Shown: positions 11,856 to 19,498 of the stretch, in pieces
Numbering within the stretch: the stretch's first letter is position 1
How the letters are laid out: every line of letters begins with the position of its first letter
Assembly (NCBI GenBank): GCA_035762345.1
Contig: DASTPE010000048.1
Span: forward strand, 41,948-105,947
Source of the DNA: Burkholderiales bacterium
Lineage (GTDB): Bacteria; Pseudomonadota; Gammaproteobacteria; Burkholderiales; SG8-39
Length of the DNA stretch: 64,000 nucleotides
Direction of reading: 5' to 3'
Program-made: the position numbers and the translations under genes
Notes under the pieces: model-generated
What the model was told of the DNA's origin: nothing
Databases searched by the model: none
Seen by the model: the letters and a program-made list of their open reading frames with translations, nothing else

Positions 11856-12176
11856 CTAAGCAGCCTTCTTCGCCCAGGCCGAGCACCAGCCCTTCGCGCT
11901 TACCTCCCGGGCCGAGAAGATGTCGCATGGTCCCCAGGCATCGGCGGATTTCCCCTTGAAGAAGTTGCAGTTCGCGCAGGTCTGGCCGGGCTGGTAGTTC
12001 TTGAACTTCGCCTGGTCGACCTTCGCTACGTCCTCCTTGTAGCCGAGCCCCTGCGCCTGGGGCTCGCCTTCGCTCACGCGCTTCGGCGCCTGCGCAAGGC
12101 CGACGGCGGGAATCAGGGCGAGCGAACCCAGCAGCAATATGCGGCGACGGCCGTGACGGAATGGTTGAGCGGACAT
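11856..12176 (-). CDS. High-potential iron-sulfur protein (HiPIP) with Tat signal
   Basis: A twin-arginine leader reads RHGRRRILLLGSLALIPAVGLAQA. The four-Cys HiPIP pattern reads CANCNFF...GPCDIF...GWCSAW. The RBS is AAAGGAGA. Confidence 0.9.
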   Translation of the reverse strand: MSAQPFRHGRRRILLLGSLALIPAVGLAQAPKRVSEGEPQAQGLGYKEDVAKVDQAKFKNYQPGQTCANCNFFKGKSADAWGPCDIFSAREVSAKGWCSAWAKKAA

Positions 12177-12377
12177 CGCGGTCTCCTTTCGGGCGAGCCC
12201 CCGGCGAGCCTGCTTCGCAAGATTCGCTCCCGAACGGTGAAGCTGCAGTGCGGTCTCTTCGTCAGAGTCTCCGCAGCGCGAAGGTCTGCAAGGGCGGAGG
12301 TGTTCGTCCGCATCGATAGCTGCACCGCGTTCGACTACTTGCTAGCGCCGGTCACCTCGTACCTCAGGCGGCGATTC

Positions 12378-12583
12378 GCGAGCCGGTCTGATGCGCGCTA
12401 TTTCCGGTCCAATTCGCCATCTAGCGGCGCGCAGCTCGGAAGGACAGTTCCGAAAAACTGGCACAAGACTCGGGCTCGCCGCGACCAAGCGCCTTGTTGA
12501 GCTGCACTGTGGGCAAAATCCTCGTTGACAGTGCCGTCGGCCACGGTTCGACGTTTCGGGTGACATTGCCGGCGCGCAACTGA
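12378..12583 (+). pseudogene. Histidine-kinase HATPase_c tail remnant with frameshift
   Basis: One frame reads ...FRKTGTRLGLAATKRLVELHCGQNPR* (G2 box region). The next frame continues KILVDSAVGHGSTFRVTLPARN* (the canonical G-x-GS-x-F...LP end). The two halves join only across a 1-nt shift near 12510. No HisKA or sensor part lies upstream. Confidence 0.5.
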
Positions 12584-12613
12584 GACCGAGAGGACGGCTC
12601 GCGCGGCCCACGC

Positions 12614-13257
12614 CAGGCCGGCTATATCGAGGACACTCGATCCACATCGAGTGGCGCTATGCCGAGCGCCTTCCGGGTCTTGCCGCCGAGCTCATCGCGA
12701 CGAAGCCGAGGCTCATCGTCGCCGAAACCACCGTGGCGGTGAGGGCCGCGAAGCAGGCGACTTCCACCATCCCGATCGTGATGACGGCAGTGGCTGATGC
12801 AGTGGGCAGCGGCCTAGTCGCGAGCCTCCCCCGGTCGGGCGCGAATGTTACGGGCATGTCCTTCCTCGGCACCGAGATCGTCGGCAAGCAGCTCGATCTG
12901 CTTAAGCAGGCCATGCCGCCGATCAGCCGGGTCGCGGTCCTGCGGCATCTCGGCGCGCACGCGGAAGCGACCGCCAAGCGCATGCGGCAGGAAGCGGACG
13001 CCGCGGCTCGCGCGATGGAACTGAGCACGAAAGTCGTCGACGTCTCGGCGGCCGGCGACCTCAACGCCGCCTTCGATTCCATCGCGCGGGACAAGGCTGA
13101 CGCGTTGCTGGTCTGGGCAAGCCCGATGTTTCTGGCGGAGCGGAAAAAGCTTATCGCGCTGTCCATGCAGCATCGACTCCCGACTGTGTACCACCAGCGC
13201 GAGTTCCCTCAGGCCGGTGGACTGACGTCCTATGGCCCCAACCTGCCGGAAAAGGGC
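12614..13257 (+). pseudogene. ABC-transporter substrate-binding protein (ABC_sub_bind-type) remnant, 5'- and 3'-truncated, frameshifted
   Basis: The sequence reads QAGYIE / (shift) / SIHIEWRYAERLPGLAAELIATKPRLIVAETTVAVRAAKQATSTIPIVMTAV...GGLTSYGPNLPEKG. There is no signal peptide or first ~70 aa. The usual C-terminal ~60 aa are missing. A frame change occurs near 12630. Confidence 0.55.
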
Positions 13258-13286
13258 CTGATAGCGCAGGCTGCAGCTTTTGAGCG

Positions 13287-13316
13287 TGAAAAAGAAAAGC
13301 CCCGCGAAGGCGGGGC
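13287..13316 (-). terminator. Rho-independent terminator of the EF-hand gene
   Basis: On the minus strand the hairpin is gccccgc-cttc-gcggggc (13299-13316), followed by ttttctttttc. Confidence 0.65.
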
Positions 13317-13338
13317 TCATTGCAGGCAGCAAAAAATG

Positions 13339-13620
13339 CTACTGCTTCTTCGGCTGCGTGGCACCTGCGCCAGCGGGCGCAGGTGTGAGTTCGTCTCTGG
13401 AGAGCTTACCGTCCTTGTTCTTATCCAGCTTGTCGAAATCCTTCTCGTACGGTGTCCCCTTCGCCTCTTCGCGGGAAATGGACCCGTCCTTGTCCTTGTC
13501 CGCCATCCCGCTTCCCGGCGTCGTAGCGCCGGCGGCTGGTTTCTCGCTCTGAGCCTGGCTCAGGAGGGGTACCGCAAGGGCGGCTGCTATGGCTACTGCA
13601 ACTAGTGTCTTCAATCTCAT
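13339..13620 (-). CDS. Secreted EF-hand calcium-binding protein
   Basis: The signal peptide reads MRLKTLVAVAIAAALAVPLLSQAQ. Two EF loops are present (DKDKDGSISREE and DKNKDGKLSRDE). Confidence 0.8.
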   Translation of the reverse strand: MRLKTLVAVAIAAALAVPLLSQAQSEKPAAGATTPGSGMADKDKDGSISREEAKGTPYEKDFDKLDKNKDGKLSRDELTPAPAGAGATQPKKQ

Positions 13621-13910
13621 TGCTGGTCTCCGGTTGTCCCCTATCCAAAGGGTACGTACACGCAGTTCGGTTTCTCGTCCGATTGGTTATTTCCTGCGGG
13701 TGGAAATATAAGCAAGAAGCACAACGCTCCGATACCGCTAAATCCTGCTATCGGGTGTAGCTTTCTTTCTACAGTGCGCATCATCGTCGCGAAAGCCCGA
13801 CACTCGACTATGTGGCGTAGCGTTTTAGCGACGCCGGCGAAGCTTGACCCCGGTCATCGTCTTGAAGCGATACACGCGTAGGGTCTGTAGGGGCAAGAAT
13901 CTTTGTTCGC

Positions 13911-14102
13911 ATGGTCAGCGACAGTATCCATTGCGAAATTCTCAGACGCGCGGCCGAAGTTGCAGGGGATGAAGATACGCTTGCACAGCACCTCGACGTG
14001 AGATCGGAGGACGTGCACGAGTGGGTGCAAGGCAGAGCGACAGCGCGGGCCGGTGTCTACATAGTAGCGCTAGACATGCTCGCGCGCGGCCCGCAGCGCT
14101 GA
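13911..14102 (+). CDS. Hypothetical 63-aa protein, possibly Cro/YdaS-like HTH
   Basis: The stretch ILRRAAEVAGDEDTLAQHLDVRSEDVHEWVQG fits a helix-turn-helix pattern loosely. No RBS is visible. It lies in the low-GC patch. Confidence 0.25.
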   Translation: MVSDSIHCEILRRAAEVAGDEDTLAQHLDVRSEDVHEWVQGRATARAGVYIVALDMLARGPQR

Positions 14103-14185
14103 CGACTTCACCCGCAAGAAAAGCCCAAAGGAAACCCCGCAAGTAGAGCGCGATTGACTACGCGCGATCTTCGACTGCGCGTGCC

Positions 14186-14267
14186 ATAAAAGAAAAAGCC
14201 CCGGACGGGTCCAGTCTTGCGGGGCTTTGATCTCCGAGCGAGGGGATGCAGCCTCGGAGAATGGGGA
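14186..14267 (-). ncRNA. Candidate ~80-nt small RNA (promoter + two hairpins + intrinsic terminator, no ORF)
   Basis: On the minus strand, hairpin 1 is ctccgag/ctcggag (14259-14232). Hairpin 2 is aaagccccg...cggggcttt (14228-14195). A ttcttttat tract follows (14194-14186). The start is inferred from the promoter at 14274-14303. Confidence 0.3.
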
Positions 14268-14273
14268 AATCTA

Positions 14274-14303
14274 AATCTATCGACGCAGCCGTCGGGATGT
14301 AAA
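14274..14303 (-). promoter_or_regulatory. Sigma70-like promoter for the candidate sRNA
   Basis: On the minus strand the -35 is TTTACA (14303-14298). An 18-nt spacer follows. The -10 is TAGATT (14279-14274), with a second TAGATT immediately downstream. Confidence 0.3.
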
Positions 14304-14526
14304 GCGGGGTTTCTGTATGCAGCAGGCCTCTGCGCGTCATGTTGGCACCTCATACCGGAACTTCAGCGCTACACAGCCTCGCCCTGGCATGTGTCCTTCA
14401 AATTGCGCGCTCAGAGCCGAACGCGGCTCAAGCGGGGCTTCCTCGGCGTACACTGAAGCGAGTTACGTTCGCGAAGGGCGATATGCAACGGGAATTCTCG
14501 GCGCTTTTTTATGAAGTAAGAGGCCA

Positions 14527-14979
14527 ATGCGCCTGAACGACTGGCAGAAATTATGGGTTGCTGCAACCGCGGTCTGGGCATTGTGCGCGCCCATGTTCTA
14601 CTTAAAGGACCAATTCCCCACTAAGGACAAGATAGATCGGACGCAAGCGAGGATGCTCAGAAGCGATATCGCGCTGTACACAAGATACGGATTTGTTCGG
14701 ACTCCTTTGTGGAACGATTACGAGAGTATGAAGATGGTAGTCCGCAATCTGTCTGACGAGGAGGTAATGTCGCTCGCAAGAGGGTTAGCCTCAGGAATGC
14801 AAGAGCCCGGAAATCGTTTAGAGGTGACCTTAGCTGGGTGGGATCGTGAGCTTGGCGAGCTGCGCAAACAGCAGGCTATATGGCTCGGAGCCTATGTTCT
14901 AGTCGTTTTGGTACCGAGCGCACTGGTGTACGGCGCGGGCTTGGTGACGGCATGGGTCCGAAGGCGATTTCGAAAATAG
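14527..14979 (+). CDS. Hypothetical two-helix membrane protein
   Basis: 150 aa with an AAGAGG RBS 5 nt upstream of the ATG. Hydrophobic helices lie at the N-terminus (LWVAATAVWALCAPMFYL) and C-terminus (AIWLGAYVLVVLVPSALVYGAGLVTAWV). The DNA is lower-GC. No family recognised. Confidence 0.5.
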   Translation: MRLNDWQKLWVAATAVWALCAPMFYLKDQFPTKDKIDRTQARMLRSDIALYTRYGFVRTPLWNDYESMKMVVRNLSDEEVMSLARGLASGMQEPGNRLEVTLAGWDRELGELRKQQAIWLGAYVLVVLVPSALVYGAGLVTAWVRRRFRK

Positions 14980-15095
14980 GAATGGCTTGCACAAGCGCAG
15001 CCGAGTCGCTGAGTGCCGCCACACCTGGCGACTCTCAGTGTCCGACGATCCGCGACAACGCGAGTTCGCGCCGAAATGACGAAGGAGATCTTGAG

Positions 15096-15280
15096 CTAGA
15101 ACGGCCCCATGAGATGCCGCAGAACGTCCCTTCGCGATTGGTCCGGCAGCCTGAACGGCTTGGCGTAGCTGCTCCCCAGATACGCCAAACTTCTCGGCCC
15201 AATAGCGCACCTCATGGTCCCGGTCTACATTGATTCGCTCGTCGTCGTGCGTGCCTGTCTTCTTCAGATCTATCGGTCAT
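15096..15280 (-). pseudogene. DUF3606-family small protein disrupted by two frameshifts
   Basis: ATG at 15280 follows GGAG. The three frames read MTDRS / KKTGTHDDERINVDRDHEVRYWAEKFGVSGEQLRQAVQAAGPIAK / DVLRHLMGPF*. Codon first positions are congruent to 1, then 0, then 2 (mod 3). The span is 185 nt, which is 3n+2. The joined sequence matches the DUF3606 pattern (RINV...YW..KFGVS..EL..AV..vG). Confidence 0.6.
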
Positions 15281-15638
15281 AAGGATCTCCTTTCGGGGGG
15301 GGGTGCGCAGTATTTCGGACGGTGTCTCGTCCGAGCGGCGAGGCGGCTTCCGGGTGCCAGTGCGCAATTCTCGGGGGACGTTAGCTCTACGCTTCTTGGC
15401 CGATACGTCGAGTCCATCCCGCAGACGCCACTGTGACCGAATTATGCGGTGGTTCAGGAGTGGCACTGCGAGGAGGCGTGACGTGCATGCTCTTAGCGGT
15501 TAGCAGTCTGCGAGCAACAGGGCTGCGATGGCGTTCGCTTCAGCCTTCAAACGCTGTTGGAACTTGCAAGTAGACAGTCCGGCCCGCGCCAGAGTAGAGA
15601 ACTACTAGATCGGGTCCACGCCCACTACGAGTAGTGGG

Positions 15639-15711
15639 GTCGTGCCATGAGACTAAACAAAGGCTGACACAGGTGAAGGGAAGGGCTTGGTAATGTGCCT
15701 TTTTGATTCTC
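15639..15711 (+). repeat. Conserved leader, copy 1 of a 314-bp tandem duplication
   Basis: gtcgtgccatgaga...ctgaca...ggcttggtaatgtgc...ttctc. The 14-mer and 15-mer blocks are identical to copy 2 at 15953. Confidence 0.8.
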
Positions 15712-15729
15712 CGTTATTTTGGTTAGGCG

Positions 15730-15939
15730 ATGGTGCGCGACGGGATTCTCGTCGTTTTGCTGCTCGTTGTTGTATGGGCCAACTACGAGGCCGATGTAAT
15801 CCGCCCGTTCGTTCAGCAGCACGCCAAGGCGGCGACCTGCATAGTCAGAAACTTTGAGATCGGAAACCTGAGGCCGGTGCGATCTGCTGTCGAGCAAAAC
15901 GTGCCCTCCCCGACGAACCCAGGGGAGTGCCACGGTTAG
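15730..15939 (+). CDS. Small hydrophobic protein, paralog 1 (69 aa)
   Basis: The sequence is MVRDGILVVLLLVVVWANYEADVIRPFVQQHAKAATCIVRNFEIGNLRPV... It shares the A-x-A-x-x-C-x-x-R-N-[FY]-x-x-G-N-L block with the ORF at 16027. The RBS is weak. Confidence 0.4.
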   Translation: MVRDGILVVLLLVVVWANYEADVIRPFVQQHAKAATCIVRNFEIGNLRPVRSAVEQNVPSPTNPGECHG

Positions 15940-15952
15940 GCAGAGCCGTGTT

Positions 15953-16026
15953 GTCGTGCCATGAGAGCCAACAAACACTGACAGCAGTACTATGAGATGG
16001 CTTGGTAATGTGCGTTCTTAGTTCTC
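15953..16026 (+). repeat. Conserved leader, copy 2 of the tandem duplication
   Basis: gtcgtgccatgaga...ctgaca...ggcttggtaatgtgc...ttctc, immediately followed by the ATG at 16027. Confidence 0.8.
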
Positions 16027-16176
16027 ATGCGTGAGTTGGTCATCGGGTTGCTGGTCATTGGCGTGGTCGTCGCGCTGCTCGTTGTTCTTGGCGCGGACCT
16101 CGCCGAGGCGATGAGCTGCATGATCCGGAACTACTCCGACGGGAACCTCCCGCGCACGGTGCAGCTCTGCTTTTGA
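16027..16176 (+). CDS. Small hydrophobic protein, paralog 2 (49 aa; below the ORF-track cutoff)
   Basis: My translation is MRELVIGLLVIGVVVALLVVLGADLAEAMSCMIRNYSDGNLPRTVQLCF*. It has one predicted helix plus the shared C-x-x-R-N-[FY]-x-x-G-N-L block. Confidence 0.4.
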   Translation: MRELVIGLLVIGVVVALLVVLGADLAEAMSCMIRNYSDGNLPRTVQLCF

Positions 16177-16278
16177 CACCTTAAGGAGTGCCGCCAGGTT
16201 TAGGCCGTCAGGCCGTACAAATGAAAAGGGCCCTGGGCAGCCGGATCGAGGTGAAGCGACCGAGGCCCCACGGGGCAG

Positions 16279-16308
16279 AAAAAACTTCAGGCTCAGATTT
16301 CAGCCTAA
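16279..16308 (-). terminator. Probable intrinsic terminator of the solA-like gene
   Basis: On the minus strand the hairpin is aggct-gaaatctg-agcct, overlapping the TGA stop. The tract gaagtttttt follows. The stem is short. Confidence 0.4.
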
Positions 16309-17436
16309 GCGTGCCATCCGGAACATCGAGAGATCGAAGGCCGGCCTCTTGCCCTGAACGAGCTCGGCGATGATCTCGCCCATCACGGAGGCGAACTTGA
16401 AGCCGTGACCCGAGCACACGCTCGCGAGAATTACCTCGTCATGGCGCGGATGCCGGTCGACGAGGAAATGGAAATCCGGCGTGTTGGTATAGAGGCACAC
16501 GTCGCTCGCCTTGAGCGCGCCGTTCGCCAGCGGGAGGCGCCGGTCCATGAAGCCGCGGATGTCCGCAATGTCCGCGTCCGTCGCCTGGCGCGACAAGTCG
16601 TCCGGCTCGCCGATGGCCCCGCCGTGGTGACGCGCGATCTTGCAGCCGGTGCCGAGATCGGGAAACCCATAATAGAACGCACCGCCCGGCTCTTCGAGAC
16701 AGAAGATCGGAAAGCGGCCCGATCCAAGGGCCGCTGGCTCGCTCGCCGGCGCGAAATGCGCGACGACCTGGCGCTCGACGCGCAGATGTGAACGAAGTTC
16801 AGCGACGAGCTCGCCCATGCTGGCGCCGGCCGTGAGCACGAGCGCGCCGCTGCTGTAGCGGTCTCGCGGCGTGCGCACGCGCACGCCTTCCGGTCCGCAG
16901 GTCCACTCCTGCGCCGGCTCGCCATAGCGCAGGTCGGCCTTCGCCGCGCGCGCGCCCTCGAGTAACGCCCGAACGCACGCCTCCGGATAGAGAATGCCGG
17001 CATCGTCCTCCCAGACCGCAATCATCGACGGATCGACGCGGAACTGCGGGTAGCGCGCGGCAAGCGCATCGCTCGAAAGCACCTCGTGCGGCAGGTGATG
17101 GGCGCGTGCGCTCGCCAGCACGCCCGGCACGAGCTCGCCCGTGGGGGCGCCCATCATGAGGCCGCCCGTCCGGCGAAAAAGCGTCGCGTGCGCACGCTCT
17201 TCGAGCTCGCGCCATGCCGCGAACGCTCGCTCGAGCAAAGGCACGTAGGCAGGATGCTCGTAGTACGCCTTGCGGATGATGCGCGACTCGCCATGATGCG
17301 AACCGTGGCGGTGCGGAGGCTGATGGCGGTCCACGCCGAGCACGTGCAGCCCGCGAGCGGCGAGCGCGTACGCAGCCGCGCTGCCCATCGCGCCGAGGCC
17401 AACAACGATCACATCGTAATTGGGCGCCACCCCCAT
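16300..17436 (-). CDS. solA: FAD-dependent sarcosine / N-methyl-L-tryptophan oxidase family (MSOX/MTOX)
   Basis: The dinucleotide fold reads YDVIVVGLGAMGSAAAYALAARG. The C-terminal CSGHGFKF motif is the covalent-FAD Cys region typical of MSOX/MTOX. Confidence 0.75.
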   Translation of the reverse strand: MGVAPNYDVIVVGLGAMGSAAAYALAARGLHVLGVDRHQPPHRHGSHHGESRIIRKAYYEHPAYVPLLERAFAAWRELEERAHATLFRRTGGLMMGAPTGELVPGVLASARAHHLPHEVLSSDALAARYPQFRVDPSMIAVWEDDAGILYPEACVRALLEGARAAKADLRYGEPAQEWTCGPEGVRVRTPRDRYSSGALVLTAGASMGELVAELRSHLRVERQVVAHFAPASEPAALGSGRFPIFCLEEPGGAFYYGFPDLGTGCKIARHHGGAIGEPDDLSRQATDADIADIRGFMDRRLPLANGALKASDVCLYTNTPDFHFLVDRHPRHDEVILASVCSGHGFKFASVMGEIIAELVQGKRPAFDLSMFRMARLG

Positions 17437-17492
17437 GTGTCAGGATTCGGACAAACACGCATAGCCACGTTCTTGATGTACAGAGAAGGTAT

Positions 17493-17860
17493 TGGTGGAG
17501 GCGGCGGGAATCGAACCCGCGTCCGTAAGCCCTACACAGTCAGGACTACATGCTTAGCCTGGTTGTTTGAGCTTCGCCTTGCGCCCGCCAACCGGCAGGC
17601 TGACGCGCGGCTAGCCGCTTCGACGGATCCCGCTGGCCAAGCGGCCAGACCGGCGGGAGAGGCTGATGTAAATGACGCTGCACCCCTTGCGGGGCCTAGA
17701 CCATCAGCAATCTAGTGCAGCGTCCCGCGGGTGTTAGGCCGCGAGAGCGAAACGCTCGTCGTTGGCGTTTGTAGTGTTTCCAGACTGGATTAGCGAGGTC
17801 ATCTGGTCCTCGGCATGCCCTGCGCTGCTTCGTTGCCCACGTCGAAACCAGGTCGCCCCC
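17493..17860 (-). ncRNA. ssrA: tmRNA (SsrA), tag peptide ANDERFALAA
   Basis: The 5' GGGGGCG pairs with the 3' CGCCUCC-ACCA, including the G3:U70 pair. The T-arm reads GGGTTCGATTCCCGC. The tag ORF gcc aac gac gag cgt ttc gct ctc gcg gcc taa lies at 17766-17734. A possible promoter is TTGAAT (17907-17902) / 18 nt / TATGAG (17883-17878). Confidence 0.95.
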
Positions 17861-17903
17861 GGAATCGTTGCGATTGTCTCATATGGGGTTGTTCGAGCCC
17901 CAT

Positions 17904-18854
17904 TCAAGACCATCCTTTTAGAACCAGTTTGCCGATCATGGTTCCCGATTCGAGCCGCTCGTGGGCTTTGCGCAGGTTGGCACCGTTGATCGACGAAAGC
18001 GTTTCCTTCAGCGTGCAGCGCAGCTTGCCGCTATCGAGCCACTCGGCGACCTGGTTGAGCAGCCGGTGCTGCTCGATCATGTCGGTCGTTTTGAAGCGCG
18101 GCCGCGTAAACATGAGCTCCCAGCAGACACTTGCGCTTTTCATTCGCACCCCGTCCATCGGCAGGGGTTTCGTGTTGCCGACAATCGCGACCAGCGCGCC
18201 TTGCGGGGCAACCAGCTTGGCCATGGCCTCCCAGTATGCGTCAAGCTCGCCGCTGAAGTTGGCGATGTAATCGACCGGGTTCTTGATCTGGTCGATGAGG
18301 CTTTTGCGGTGGTTCACGACCTCGTCGGCCCCGAGCGTTTTCACCCAAGCCACGGACTCCGGGCGTGAAGCGGTCGCGATTACATGCAGGCCGGCCTGCT
18401 TCGCGAGTTGTATGCCGATCGAGCCCACGCCGCCCGCCCCGCTAATGATGAGGATGCGCTTTCCCGCCTGCACTTTCATGCGGTCGAAGAACGCCTCCCA
18501 CGCCGTGATGGACGTGAGCGGCATCGCGGCTGCCTGCGCGAAGTCGAGCGTCCTTGGCTTGCGTCCGACGATGCGCTCGTCGACGAGATGAAATTCGCTG
18601 TTGCAGCCTGGGCGAGTGACGTCACCGGCGTAGTACACGGTGTCGCCAGGTTTGAACAAGGTGACTTCTTTTCCTATCGCTTCTACGGTGCCGGCCGCGT
18701 CCCAGCCGAGTATGCGGGACGCGGTCGCTTGCTTGCGCTGCTTGTAATCGACGGGGTTTACCGAGACCGCTTCGACTCTGACGAGCAGGTCGCGGCCGGA
18801 CGCCGAGGGCTTGGGAAGCTCGATGTCGGCGAAGGTGTGGTCGACGGCTCTCAC
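17904..18854 (-). CDS. Zinc-type alcohol dehydrogenase-like / quinone oxidoreductase (MDR superfamily)
   Basis: 316 aa with a GroES-like N-terminus and the Rossmann motif ILIISGAGGVGSIGIQLAKQAG. Confidence 0.8.
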   Translation of the reverse strand: MRAVDHTFADIELPKPSASGRDLLVRVEAVSVNPVDYKQRKQATASRILGWDAAGTVEAIGKEVTLFKPGDTVYYAGDVTRPGCNSEFHLVDERIVGRKPRTLDFAQAAAMPLTSITAWEAFFDRMKVQAGKRILIISGAGGVGSIGIQLAKQAGLHVIATASRPESVAWVKTLGADEVVNHRKSLIDQIKNPVDYIANFSGELDAYWEAMAKLVAPQGALVAIVGNTKPLPMDGVRMKSASVCWELMFTRPRFKTTDMIEQHRLLNQVAEWLDSGKLRCTLKETLSSINGANLRKAHERLESGTMIGKLVLKGWS

Positions 18855-19498
18855 AGGTGCTTGACCAGATCCATGGGGCAGGCGATGACGAGTTCGGCTT
18901 CCCAGGTGCCCGGCCCGCCGCTCTCGGGATGGTGGTAGCCCCAGTCGACCGCGATCGGGCGCATGCCGGCTGCGCGCGCGGCCTTCATGTCGCGCAGGTC
19001 GTCGCCGAGGAACCAGCAGCTAGCCGGCGGCAGGTTGAGCTGCTCCGCCGCGTGCAGGAGTGGAGCCGGATGCGGCTTGAGGTGCGGAGTGGTGTCACCG
19101 CACGCGACGCAGTCGGGCTTGAGTTGCAGGTGGGCAAGGATGCGCTCGGTAAAGCGCGTTGCTTTGTTGGTCACCACGCCCCAGCGGATGTCGCGCGCAG
19201 CGAGCTCACGCAGAAGCTCGGCGACGCCCGGGAAGAGGGCGGTCTTCCCGCAGCAGGTCTCGGCATAGAGGTCGAGGAACTCCTGGCGCATCGCCTTGTA
19301 TTCTGCATCGTCTGGCTTGATGCCGAAGGCCGCATGCAGCAGCCCGCGTGCGCCCGCGGAAGCGAACGGCCGCAGGCGCTCGAGCGGGAAAGGCTCGTGT
19401 CCCTGCTCGAGCCGCATGCGGTTGACCGCGGCGGCGAGATCGGGCGCTGTGTCGGCAAGCGTGCCGTCGAAATCGAACAGGACCGCGCGGCTAGGCAT
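18851..19498 (-). CDS. gph: Phosphoglycolate phosphatase (HAD superfamily)
   Basis: HAD motif I reads [12 protein letters not shown]. Later motifs include GVVTNK and [16 protein letters not shown]. The ubiG-gph adjacency is conserved. Confidence 0.8.

Follow-up and report, generated by a model that had tools for sequence, protein, structure and literature searches.

What is the function of two short open reading frames (ORFs) that stand head to tail, each behind the same short stretch of conserved non-coding DNA? This question is raised by a cassette on the plus strand of contig DASTPE010000048.1 from a Burkholderiales bacterium, within a 64-kb stretch that was analyzed as a whole (hereafter, the window). 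A sequence-only reading had described the cassette as a 314-bp tandem duplication of a leader and a small hydrophobic peptide and had likened its layout to type I toxin-antitoxin repeats. We found that short boxes within the leader are kept in copies of the cassette from other samples, while the sequence between some of them is scrambled, and that the ORFs behind them carry coding signatures. As a tentative explanation, to which we assign a probability of roughly 0.38, each unit would be a self-contained small gene in which the leader of approximately 60 nt is a transcription control region and the product is an exported or membrane peptide.

Conserved boxes in the leader

A repeat search of the window revealed two head-to-tail units, U1 and U2, in a register of 314/315 bp. 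Every coordinate that had been reported for them was confirmed in the sequence, including the spacing of 314 bp, the identical 14-mer and 15-mer, the ORFs and the palindromes. Each unit opens with box A (GTCGTGCCATGAGA; 15639-15652 in U1 and, as an exact repeat, 15953-15966 in U2), which is followed at a fixed spacing by box B, defined here as AACAA-N3-CTGACA (AACAAAGGCTGACA at 15656-15669; AACAAACACTGACA at 15970-15983). Box C (GGCTTGGTAATGTGC; 15684-15698 and 15999-16013) comes next and holds TGgTAATGT together with an ATG that is preceded by a purine-rich stretch. The ORFs then follow on the same strand: P1, of 69 amino acids (15730-15939), and P2, of 49 amino acids (16027-16176), the ATG of which lies 14 nt past box C and 15 nt past TAATGT. 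Box A occurs twice in the whole 64 kb, with no further copy even when 2 mismatches were allowed.

The two units were identical at 26 of 31 positions in the A-B region and at 15 of 15 in box C, at only 4 of 14 in the spacer and at 59-63% in the ORFs; outside the boxes, they were approximately 60% identical. Against such a background, the chance of 29 consecutive identical bases in two blocks is approximately 0.6^29 = 4e-7, and the identity of the boxes is therefore not due to chance. We take U1 and U2 to be old, diverged paralogues that retain perfectly conserved blocks, rather than the outcome of a recent duplication. The tandem duplication described earlier is confirmed in that the two peptides are paralogous members of a genuine and very rare family.

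Relatives were sought with a profile of both peptides against 5.8 billion proteins and with an exhaustive HMMER pass over 1.84 billion representatives. The profile recovered two clusters and the HMMER pass added one; with one more cluster member, this search, which the sequence-only reading had proposed for leader and peptides alike, yielded four extra DNA copies in total, in soil metagenome contigs. L002 (P2 type, 94% identical) and L005 (P1 type) came from farmland soil, and L001 (P1 type, 65% identical to P1 in amino acids) and L012 (P1 type, 3 amino acids different from the peptide of L001) each came from a public SRA run (Logan assembly). At the protein level, the relatives of P1 were P0001 (65% identical), P0126 and P0003, and the exact P1 sequence was absent from the protein collection. 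P2 was 94% identical to P0002, and its exact sequence is annotated as the hypothetical protein HEU4351115.1 of a Burkholderiales metagenome-assembled genome. The leader patterns gave 0 matches in 185,579 species genomes and JGI metagenomes, nucleotide searches of plasmids and phages gave no match, and a full-text literature search on the box sequences and WANYEAD returned no papers. Two leader-pattern matches in IMG/VR were rejected as chance, as they lie inside a phage coding region without boxes A and B. The peptide family is real but very rare.

The leader was aligned over the six copies (U1, U2, L001, L002, L005 and L012), which come from at least three lineages. The 14-nt core of box C, GGCTTGGTAATGTG, was invariant in all six. 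Box A was invariant at 9 of 14 positions (TCGT-CCA--AG), and box B showed an invariant ACAA-N3-CT-R-ACA at a constant distance from box A. Neither the 14-16 nt that separate boxes B and C nor the sequence past box C could be aligned. Since frozen boxes and scrambled spacers recur in orthologues and paralogues alike, we attribute the pattern to purifying selection acting on the boxes and not to gene conversion. The earlier observation that the leader is better conserved than the ORF is borne out by the four further copies, in which box C is unchanged and boxes A and B are largely conserved beside scrambled spacers.

The surroundings of the boxes were less distinctive. CCACG precedes box A by a constant 18 nt in each of the five copies that include this stretch; in U1, the CCACG-N18 segment (15616-15638) includes the palindrome CCCACTACGAGTAGTGGG (15621-15638), and before U2 the CCACG is the 5' arm of a hairpin, CACGG-N10-CCGTG, that spans the stop codon of P1 (15931-15950). 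A hairpin or palindrome had been reported before each unit and is located where it was placed, but neither stands out (z -0.8 to -1.9): the unit 1 hairpin has a folding energy of -10.3 kcal/mol (z = -0.76) and is not kept in L002, and that of unit 2 has -9.2 kcal/mol (z = -1.66). Additionally, a box-B-like 15-mer in inverted orientation, GACAAAGCCTGACAG, was observed in L001 (760-781, minus strand) and at the equivalent position in L012; it is identical to the box B of L005 at 14 of 15 positions. It lies approximately 115 nt downstream of the P1-type ORF and is followed on the same strand by TAAGGTGATTC, which is identical to the start region of the L005 ORF. Its local alignment score of 25 is marginal, since shuffled sequences reached 22 at the 95th percentile and 27 at most, and was not relied on; the 15-mer could be a degenerate inverted unit or chance.

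The peptides and their coding signals

P1 consists of MVRD, a 13-residue apolar run and WA/NYEAD (the slash marking the candidate cleavage site), followed by a tail with Cys37 and Cys67. The N-terminus of the P1 type reads MVRD-GILVVLLLVVV-WA/NYEAD, and the xWA/NYEAD junction is kept in U1, L001, L012 and L005. Compared by eye with the layout of a Sec-type signal peptide (a charged n-region, an h-region of 7-15 residues and small residues at -3 and -1 before the cleavage site), this N-terminus resembles a signal sequence that could be cleaved more than it does the helix of a toxin. P2 consists of MRE, a 20-residue apolar run and ADLAEAMSCMIRNYSDGNLPRTVQLCF, with Cys31 and Cys48; its longer run fits a predicted membrane anchor better than a signal peptide. 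The two peptides have a core in common (AKAATCIVRNFEIGNL / AEAMSCMIRNYSDGNL). On reading the two units against each other, the 5' untranslated region of P1 aligned in frame with codons 2-7 of P2, which suggests that P1 is an N-terminally shortened version. At the other end, the TGA stop of P2 arises from a local +1 shift relative to P1. Past this stop (16177-16216, plus strand) lies a remnant of the ancestral C-terminus, in which HLKECRQV and a stop codon can still be read in frame and are homologous to the PGECHG end of P1, together with a TTAGGCCGTCAGGCCGT box that is common to other copies.

Profile searches placed neither peptide in a known family. Pfam-A at E <= 1 gave DUF2390 alone for P1 (E = 0.13) and nothing for P2, with no match to Hok_gef or any other type I toxin family, and NCBIfam, PHROGs and PADLOC gave no relevant match for either. 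The AlphaFold model was a single long helix with a predicted local distance difference test score of 60 and was uninformative.

GC content by codon position followed the order GC3 > GC1 > GC2 in every copy, with values at positions 1, 2 and 3 of.64/.39/.74 for P1,.64/.36/.86 for P2 and.73/.50/.82 for the neighbouring gene of the DAO oxidase family. Between the P1 and P2 types, the indels up to the end of the common core measure 3, 36 and 3 nt, all in frame. A core Arg codon is AGA in one type and CGG in the other, the core omega is 0.42, and the apolar character of the N-terminus is retained through V/A/G and L/F/I exchanges. The closest pair, L001 and L012, differs by 5 third-position and 3 replacement changes (omega ~0.2; binomial p ~0.03); for P1 and L001, omega is 0.79. 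A 117-residue ORF on the minus strand (15625-15978) was discarded, as a stop codon in L001 means that it is not conserved. We conclude that the ORFs are genuine, fast-evolving small genes, some copies of which are probably decaying.

Expression of the units

In the favoured reading, box C would carry an extended -10 promoter element, TG-g-TAATGT, and boxes A and B, approximately 35-65 nt upstream of the predicted start, would form a putative regulator-binding site. Transcription is predicted to begin approximately 7 nt past TAATGT, near 15703 and 16018, so that the mRNAs would be short-leader or leaderless. Very short 5' leaders would explain the lack of a Shine-Dalgarno sequence, none of which was found before any of the ORFs. 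Each product would be a small peptide whose N-terminal segment acts as a signal or anchor and whose cysteine-containing tail faces the periplasm; P1 would probably be cleaved after xWA, and P2 would probably remain membrane-anchored. Unit number would change through recombination within box A, and the cassette would travel in prophage or island remnants beside tRNA or tmRNA genes. The conservation pattern, the coding signatures, the rarity of the family, the genomic context and the variable unit number are observations; that box C acts as a promoter, that boxes A and B act as an operator and that the peptides are exported, we infer from the sequence.

A role at the level of DNA is favoured because the leader is unstructured, TAATGT and the start codon stand at freely varying distances (9, 15 or ~33 nt) and a ribosome-binding site is lacking. 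No conserved secondary structure was found in the leader on either strand (RNAalifold, -2.7 and -2.1 kcal/mol, with essentially no covariation), which favours a DNA-level or primary-sequence role. In L001 and L012, the copies with the clearest purifying selection, the ATG stands 9 nt past TAATGT, as expected of a leaderless mRNA.

Several observations weigh against the favoured reading. TAATGT fits the -10 consensus at 3 of 6 positions, though these are the three critical ones (T, A and T), and the extended -10 element accounts for only 9 of the 14 invariant bases of box C. A strict sigma-70 scan for -35/-10 pairs found no promoter in the units on either strand; CTGACA was considered as the -35 element for TAATGT and rejected, the spacing of 21-23 nt being too long. 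No regulator gene for boxes A and B was identified. Older comparisons within the P1 type (U1, L001 and L005) gave omega values of ~0.8-2.3 with changes spread evenly across codon positions, and in L005 a deletion between CGCCAAGGC repeats has removed the Cys/RN/GNL core entirely. U1 and L005 also have leaders of ~33 nt without a ribosome-binding site, and some unit copies may be dead.

Other readings of the leader were set aside by inspection. A sigma-54 promoter (TGGCAC-N5-TTGC, with a strict GG-N10-GC spacing) was rejected: the minus strand of box A reads a perfect TGGCACG, yet no copy has GC at -12, and box C has GG-N11-GC, which is the wrong spacing and is lost in L001 and L012. The extracytoplasmic function (ECF)-type, MerR-type long-spacer and P2-Ogr (TGT-N12-ACA) readings were likewise rejected. 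An integron gene cassette was rejected as well, with no attC-like hairpin, no GTTRRRY/RYYYAAC pair and no integrase nearby.

The sequence-only reading had pointed instead to a type I toxin-antitoxin-like module, in which the leader would be the 5' untranslated region of a toxin mRNA and the product a membrane-damaging peptide. Box A would fold onto the start-codon region and block translation, and an antisense or trans-acting small RNA would target boxes B and C. Tandem paralogues of small hydrophobic peptides within a mobile-element remnant are consistent with such a module, as is P2, in which a 20-residue apolar helix precedes a Cys-containing tail in a general Hok-like layout. In U1, L001 and U2, the start-codon region is complementary to box A, and the two pair in the minimum-free-energy fold of each; this region is the best duplex partner of box A in U1 and L001, and in the L001 duplex a G.U pair is replaced by A-U. 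However, 3 of the 5 copies (U2, L002 and L005) have a better duplex option for box A than the start-codon region, and a substitution in L002 disrupts the pairing. The folds of whole units were ordinary (z = -0.68, +0.67 and -2.0 for U1, U2 and L001). The leader had no conserved fold on either strand and no Rfam match, and the suggestion that it acts as an RNA structure found no support.

The search for an antisense partner was similarly negative. In consensus scans, a weight-matrix scan of all copies detected no positionally conserved promoter on either strand, and the units contain neither a promoter-like site for an antisense RNA nor a minus-strand terminator; the terminator-like sites detected were one within the P2 ORF (plus strand) and that of the DAO gene. 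The suggestion that the leader is an antisense target was not supported by these scans, which found neither a sigma-70-like promoter nor an intrinsic terminator for such an RNA in the units. No complementary copy of boxes A or C was found elsewhere in the 64 kb. An Rfam cmscan (E <= 10) of 12000-19000 returned the tmRNA plus chance matches only, with no Sok, Rdl, Sib, Orz, IstR or ptaRNA1, and a scan of L001, L002, L005 and L012 gave nothing except a tRNA fragment. These results and those from Pfam agree with the earlier observation that no similarity to ldr-, ibs- or zor-type families is recognizable; they also leave the module without a match to any type I family. The P1-type apolar run is moreover just 13 residues long. 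We also observed a strong intrinsic terminator on the minus strand of L001 (646-706) and L012 (1009-1068), with energies of -23 and -25 kcal/mol and a CUUUUCUUUUCC tail, 10-60 nt past the P1-type stop codon; the window and L005 have weak equivalents alone at the same place (AAAAGGGCCC...). The terminator could end a convergent small RNA, which would suit the module. Overall, the type I layout rests on resemblance, and we consider this explanation unlikely.

An undescribed small-toxin or regulatory module restricted to Burkholderiales would go one step further. The invariant 14 nt of box C and a box A that pairs with the start region would together make up a novel kind of post-transcriptional switch. 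It would act on a membrane peptide with no Shine-Dalgarno sequence, under the control of a small RNA (antisense or trans-acting) or of a leader peptide, and the module would be carried on elements that target tRNA or tmRNA genes. This seems quite improbable; if true, it would represent a new type I-like toxin-antitoxin family outside Enterobacteria and Firmicutes.

The ATG within box C raises another explanation, in which box C would provide both ribosome-binding site and start codon (AAGG-N7-AUG) for a tiny ORF upstream (MC...), which ends at a UGA just inside the main ORF, the latter being translated by termination-reinitiation. Such an ORF of 7-15 codons was found in 5 of the 6 copies (U2, L002, L001/L012 and L005), with its TGA 5-13 nt past the main start codon. 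A purine-rich AAGG, GAAGG or TAGG stands 7 nt before the box C ATG, and the main ORFs all lack a ribosome-binding site of their own. U1, however, has lost the TGA, and its upstream frame runs for 56 codons (15687-15857, plus strand). Stops in an alternative frame are common, so that the pattern may be coincidence; the upstream peptides have Met-Cys alone in common; and a ribosome-binding site with a start codon leaves 14 invariant bases unexplained. The device would also require a promoter upstream of box A, where the scans found none. We regard it as very unlikely.

Genomic context and comparison with known systems

The cassette lies in a patch of lower GC content (0.51-0.60 across 13.6-16.3 kb, compared with 0.63-0.71 in the flanks), and the low-GC junk patch noted in the sequence-only reading was recovered as a decaying, strain-specific islet. 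The tmRNA gene ssrA (17493-17860, minus strand; 197 bits; tag ANDERFALAA) is 1.3 kb from the cassette; its 3' end has no repeat elsewhere in the window, so that no boundary of an integrated island was defined. Between the two lies the DAO-family gene (16300-17436, minus strand), which is sarcosine / N-methyltryptophan oxidase-like and is 83-97% identical in nucleotides to genes on four metagenome contigs (L008-L011). The homology of these contigs to the window stops at both ends of the gene and neither flank is common, from which we take the islet to be strain-specific. Either the neighbourhood of the DAO gene is highly rearranged or the gene moves on its own.

On the other side of the cassette, a DUF3606 gene (~15096-15290, minus strand; ribosome-binding site AAAGGAG) can be read through only after two frameshifts are corrected. 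The repaired protein of 57 amino acids scores 69 bits over the full profile, and the gene is either a pseudogene or an assembly indel artefact; a run of 9 G was observed just upstream of it (~15294-15302). The islet also contains an ORF for a 93-residue secreted EF-hand protein (13339-13620, minus strand), which is lanmodulin-like at E 1e-7, far below the cut-off; a 63-residue ORF (13911-14102, plus strand) with a weak YdaS/Cro-like match below the threshold (24.7 bits, cut-off 30); and a 150-residue two-helix membrane protein (14527-14979, plus strand) with no family match.

The other copies offer a view of how the cassette is carried. In L012, the 3' half of a tRNA (1-57; tRNA-Val with anticodon CAC, by eye) lies approximately 670 nt upstream of the cassette. 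A gene for a 79-residue membrane protein (309-548) adjoins the cassette; its sole homologue, P0128, is 84% identical. The loci of P0128 (L013-L016) are prophage-like strings of small genes that include Lar restriction-alleviation genes, and they contain no cassette. L002 has a single unit, in which the upstream flank of unit 1 is fused to a unit-2-type leader exactly at box A. The number of units is thus polymorphic, and the junction suggests that it changes by recombination in this 14-mer.

This context bears on the explanation that the cassette is a decaying remnant, once functional in a phage or island and now drifting, with P1 inactive and P2 truncated; its leader would be conserved merely because the copies are young or through past function. 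The strain-specific islet, neither flank of which recurs in relatives whose DAO gene is 95-97% identical, and the two frameshifts in DUF3606 agree with this explanation. So do the omega values of ~0.8-2.3 and the internal deletion in L005 described above, the frameshift that created the P2 stop, and the absence of the exact P1 from the protein collection, in contrast to P2, for which an identical protein has been annotated. Against it, box C is invariant beside randomised spacers across copies that differ by 17-40%, which cannot be drift. L001/L012 and U2/L002 together show a synonymous excess (7 synonymous and 6 replacement changes), P2 has a coding-type GC3 of 0.86, and all six copies retain an open frame with an apolar N-terminus. 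Decay fits the islet but not the frozen boxes, and as an account of the cassette we find it doubtful.

Returning to the autonomous small genes of the favoured reading, we compared the cassette with systems of similar layout. The enterobacterial ldr/rdl, ibs/sib, zor/orz and hok/sok modules likewise comprise head-to-tail paralogous short genes that encode a hydrophobic N-terminal helix, have a 5' non-coding region more conserved than the ORF, and occupy variable or mobile DNA with a copy number that varies between strains. In contrast to these modules, the units described here have no similarity to them in sequence or profile, no Rfam antitoxin RNA, no detectable antisense promoter or terminator and no structured leader. 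There is no Shine-Dalgarno sequence to sequester, and the P1-type peptides resemble secreted pre-peptides rather than pore-forming helices. P2 is predicted to have the general form of Hok/Gef (PF01848), with approximately 50 amino acids, an N-terminal transmembrane helix and a periplasmic cysteine-containing tail. Its C-x-I-R-x-x-x-x-G-N, viewed by eye, loosely recalls the C-E-I-R-x-x-x-G of Hok, with a one-residue gap needed. However, neither peptide matched Hok_gef at the Pfam threshold used, and the units lack a mok-like frame that overlaps the ORF, a Sok-like RNA and fold-back elements of the 5' and 3' ends.

The cassette is also similar to prophage 'moron' or accessory small membrane-protein genes, in that an autonomous small gene, patchily distributed and fast evolving, stands behind a conserved control region of its own in prophage or island remnants by tRNA or tmRNA genes. 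It differs from them in that it matches nothing in PHROGs or PADLOC, has no true copy in IMG/VR and has no intact phage around it, and the bracketing of the cassette by terminators was not demonstrated. With leaderless or short-leader mRNAs transcribed from an extended -10 element, the cassette has in common TG-n-TAnnnT at 9-15 nt before an ATG that lacks a Shine-Dalgarno sequence in the copies preserved best, L001/L012 and U2/L002, whereas the element-to-start distance is ~33 nt in U1 and L005; this likeness rests on prediction. Leaderless genes are uncommon in Proteobacteria.

If active, the cassette would bring to the poorly charted small-protein repertoire of uncultured soil Burkholderiales a family of tiny peptides, exported or membrane-bound, under an unusually constrained control sequence. 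Most of this family escapes automatic annotation, P2 alone being annotated. In Betaproteobacteria, the cassette may exemplify a new toxin-like module or expression without a Shine-Dalgarno sequence or a leader; with six copies known, its interest as an orphan element is local for now. As judged from these comparisons, the cassette is a new, very rare orphan that belongs to no known family and resembles tandem small-peptide modules.

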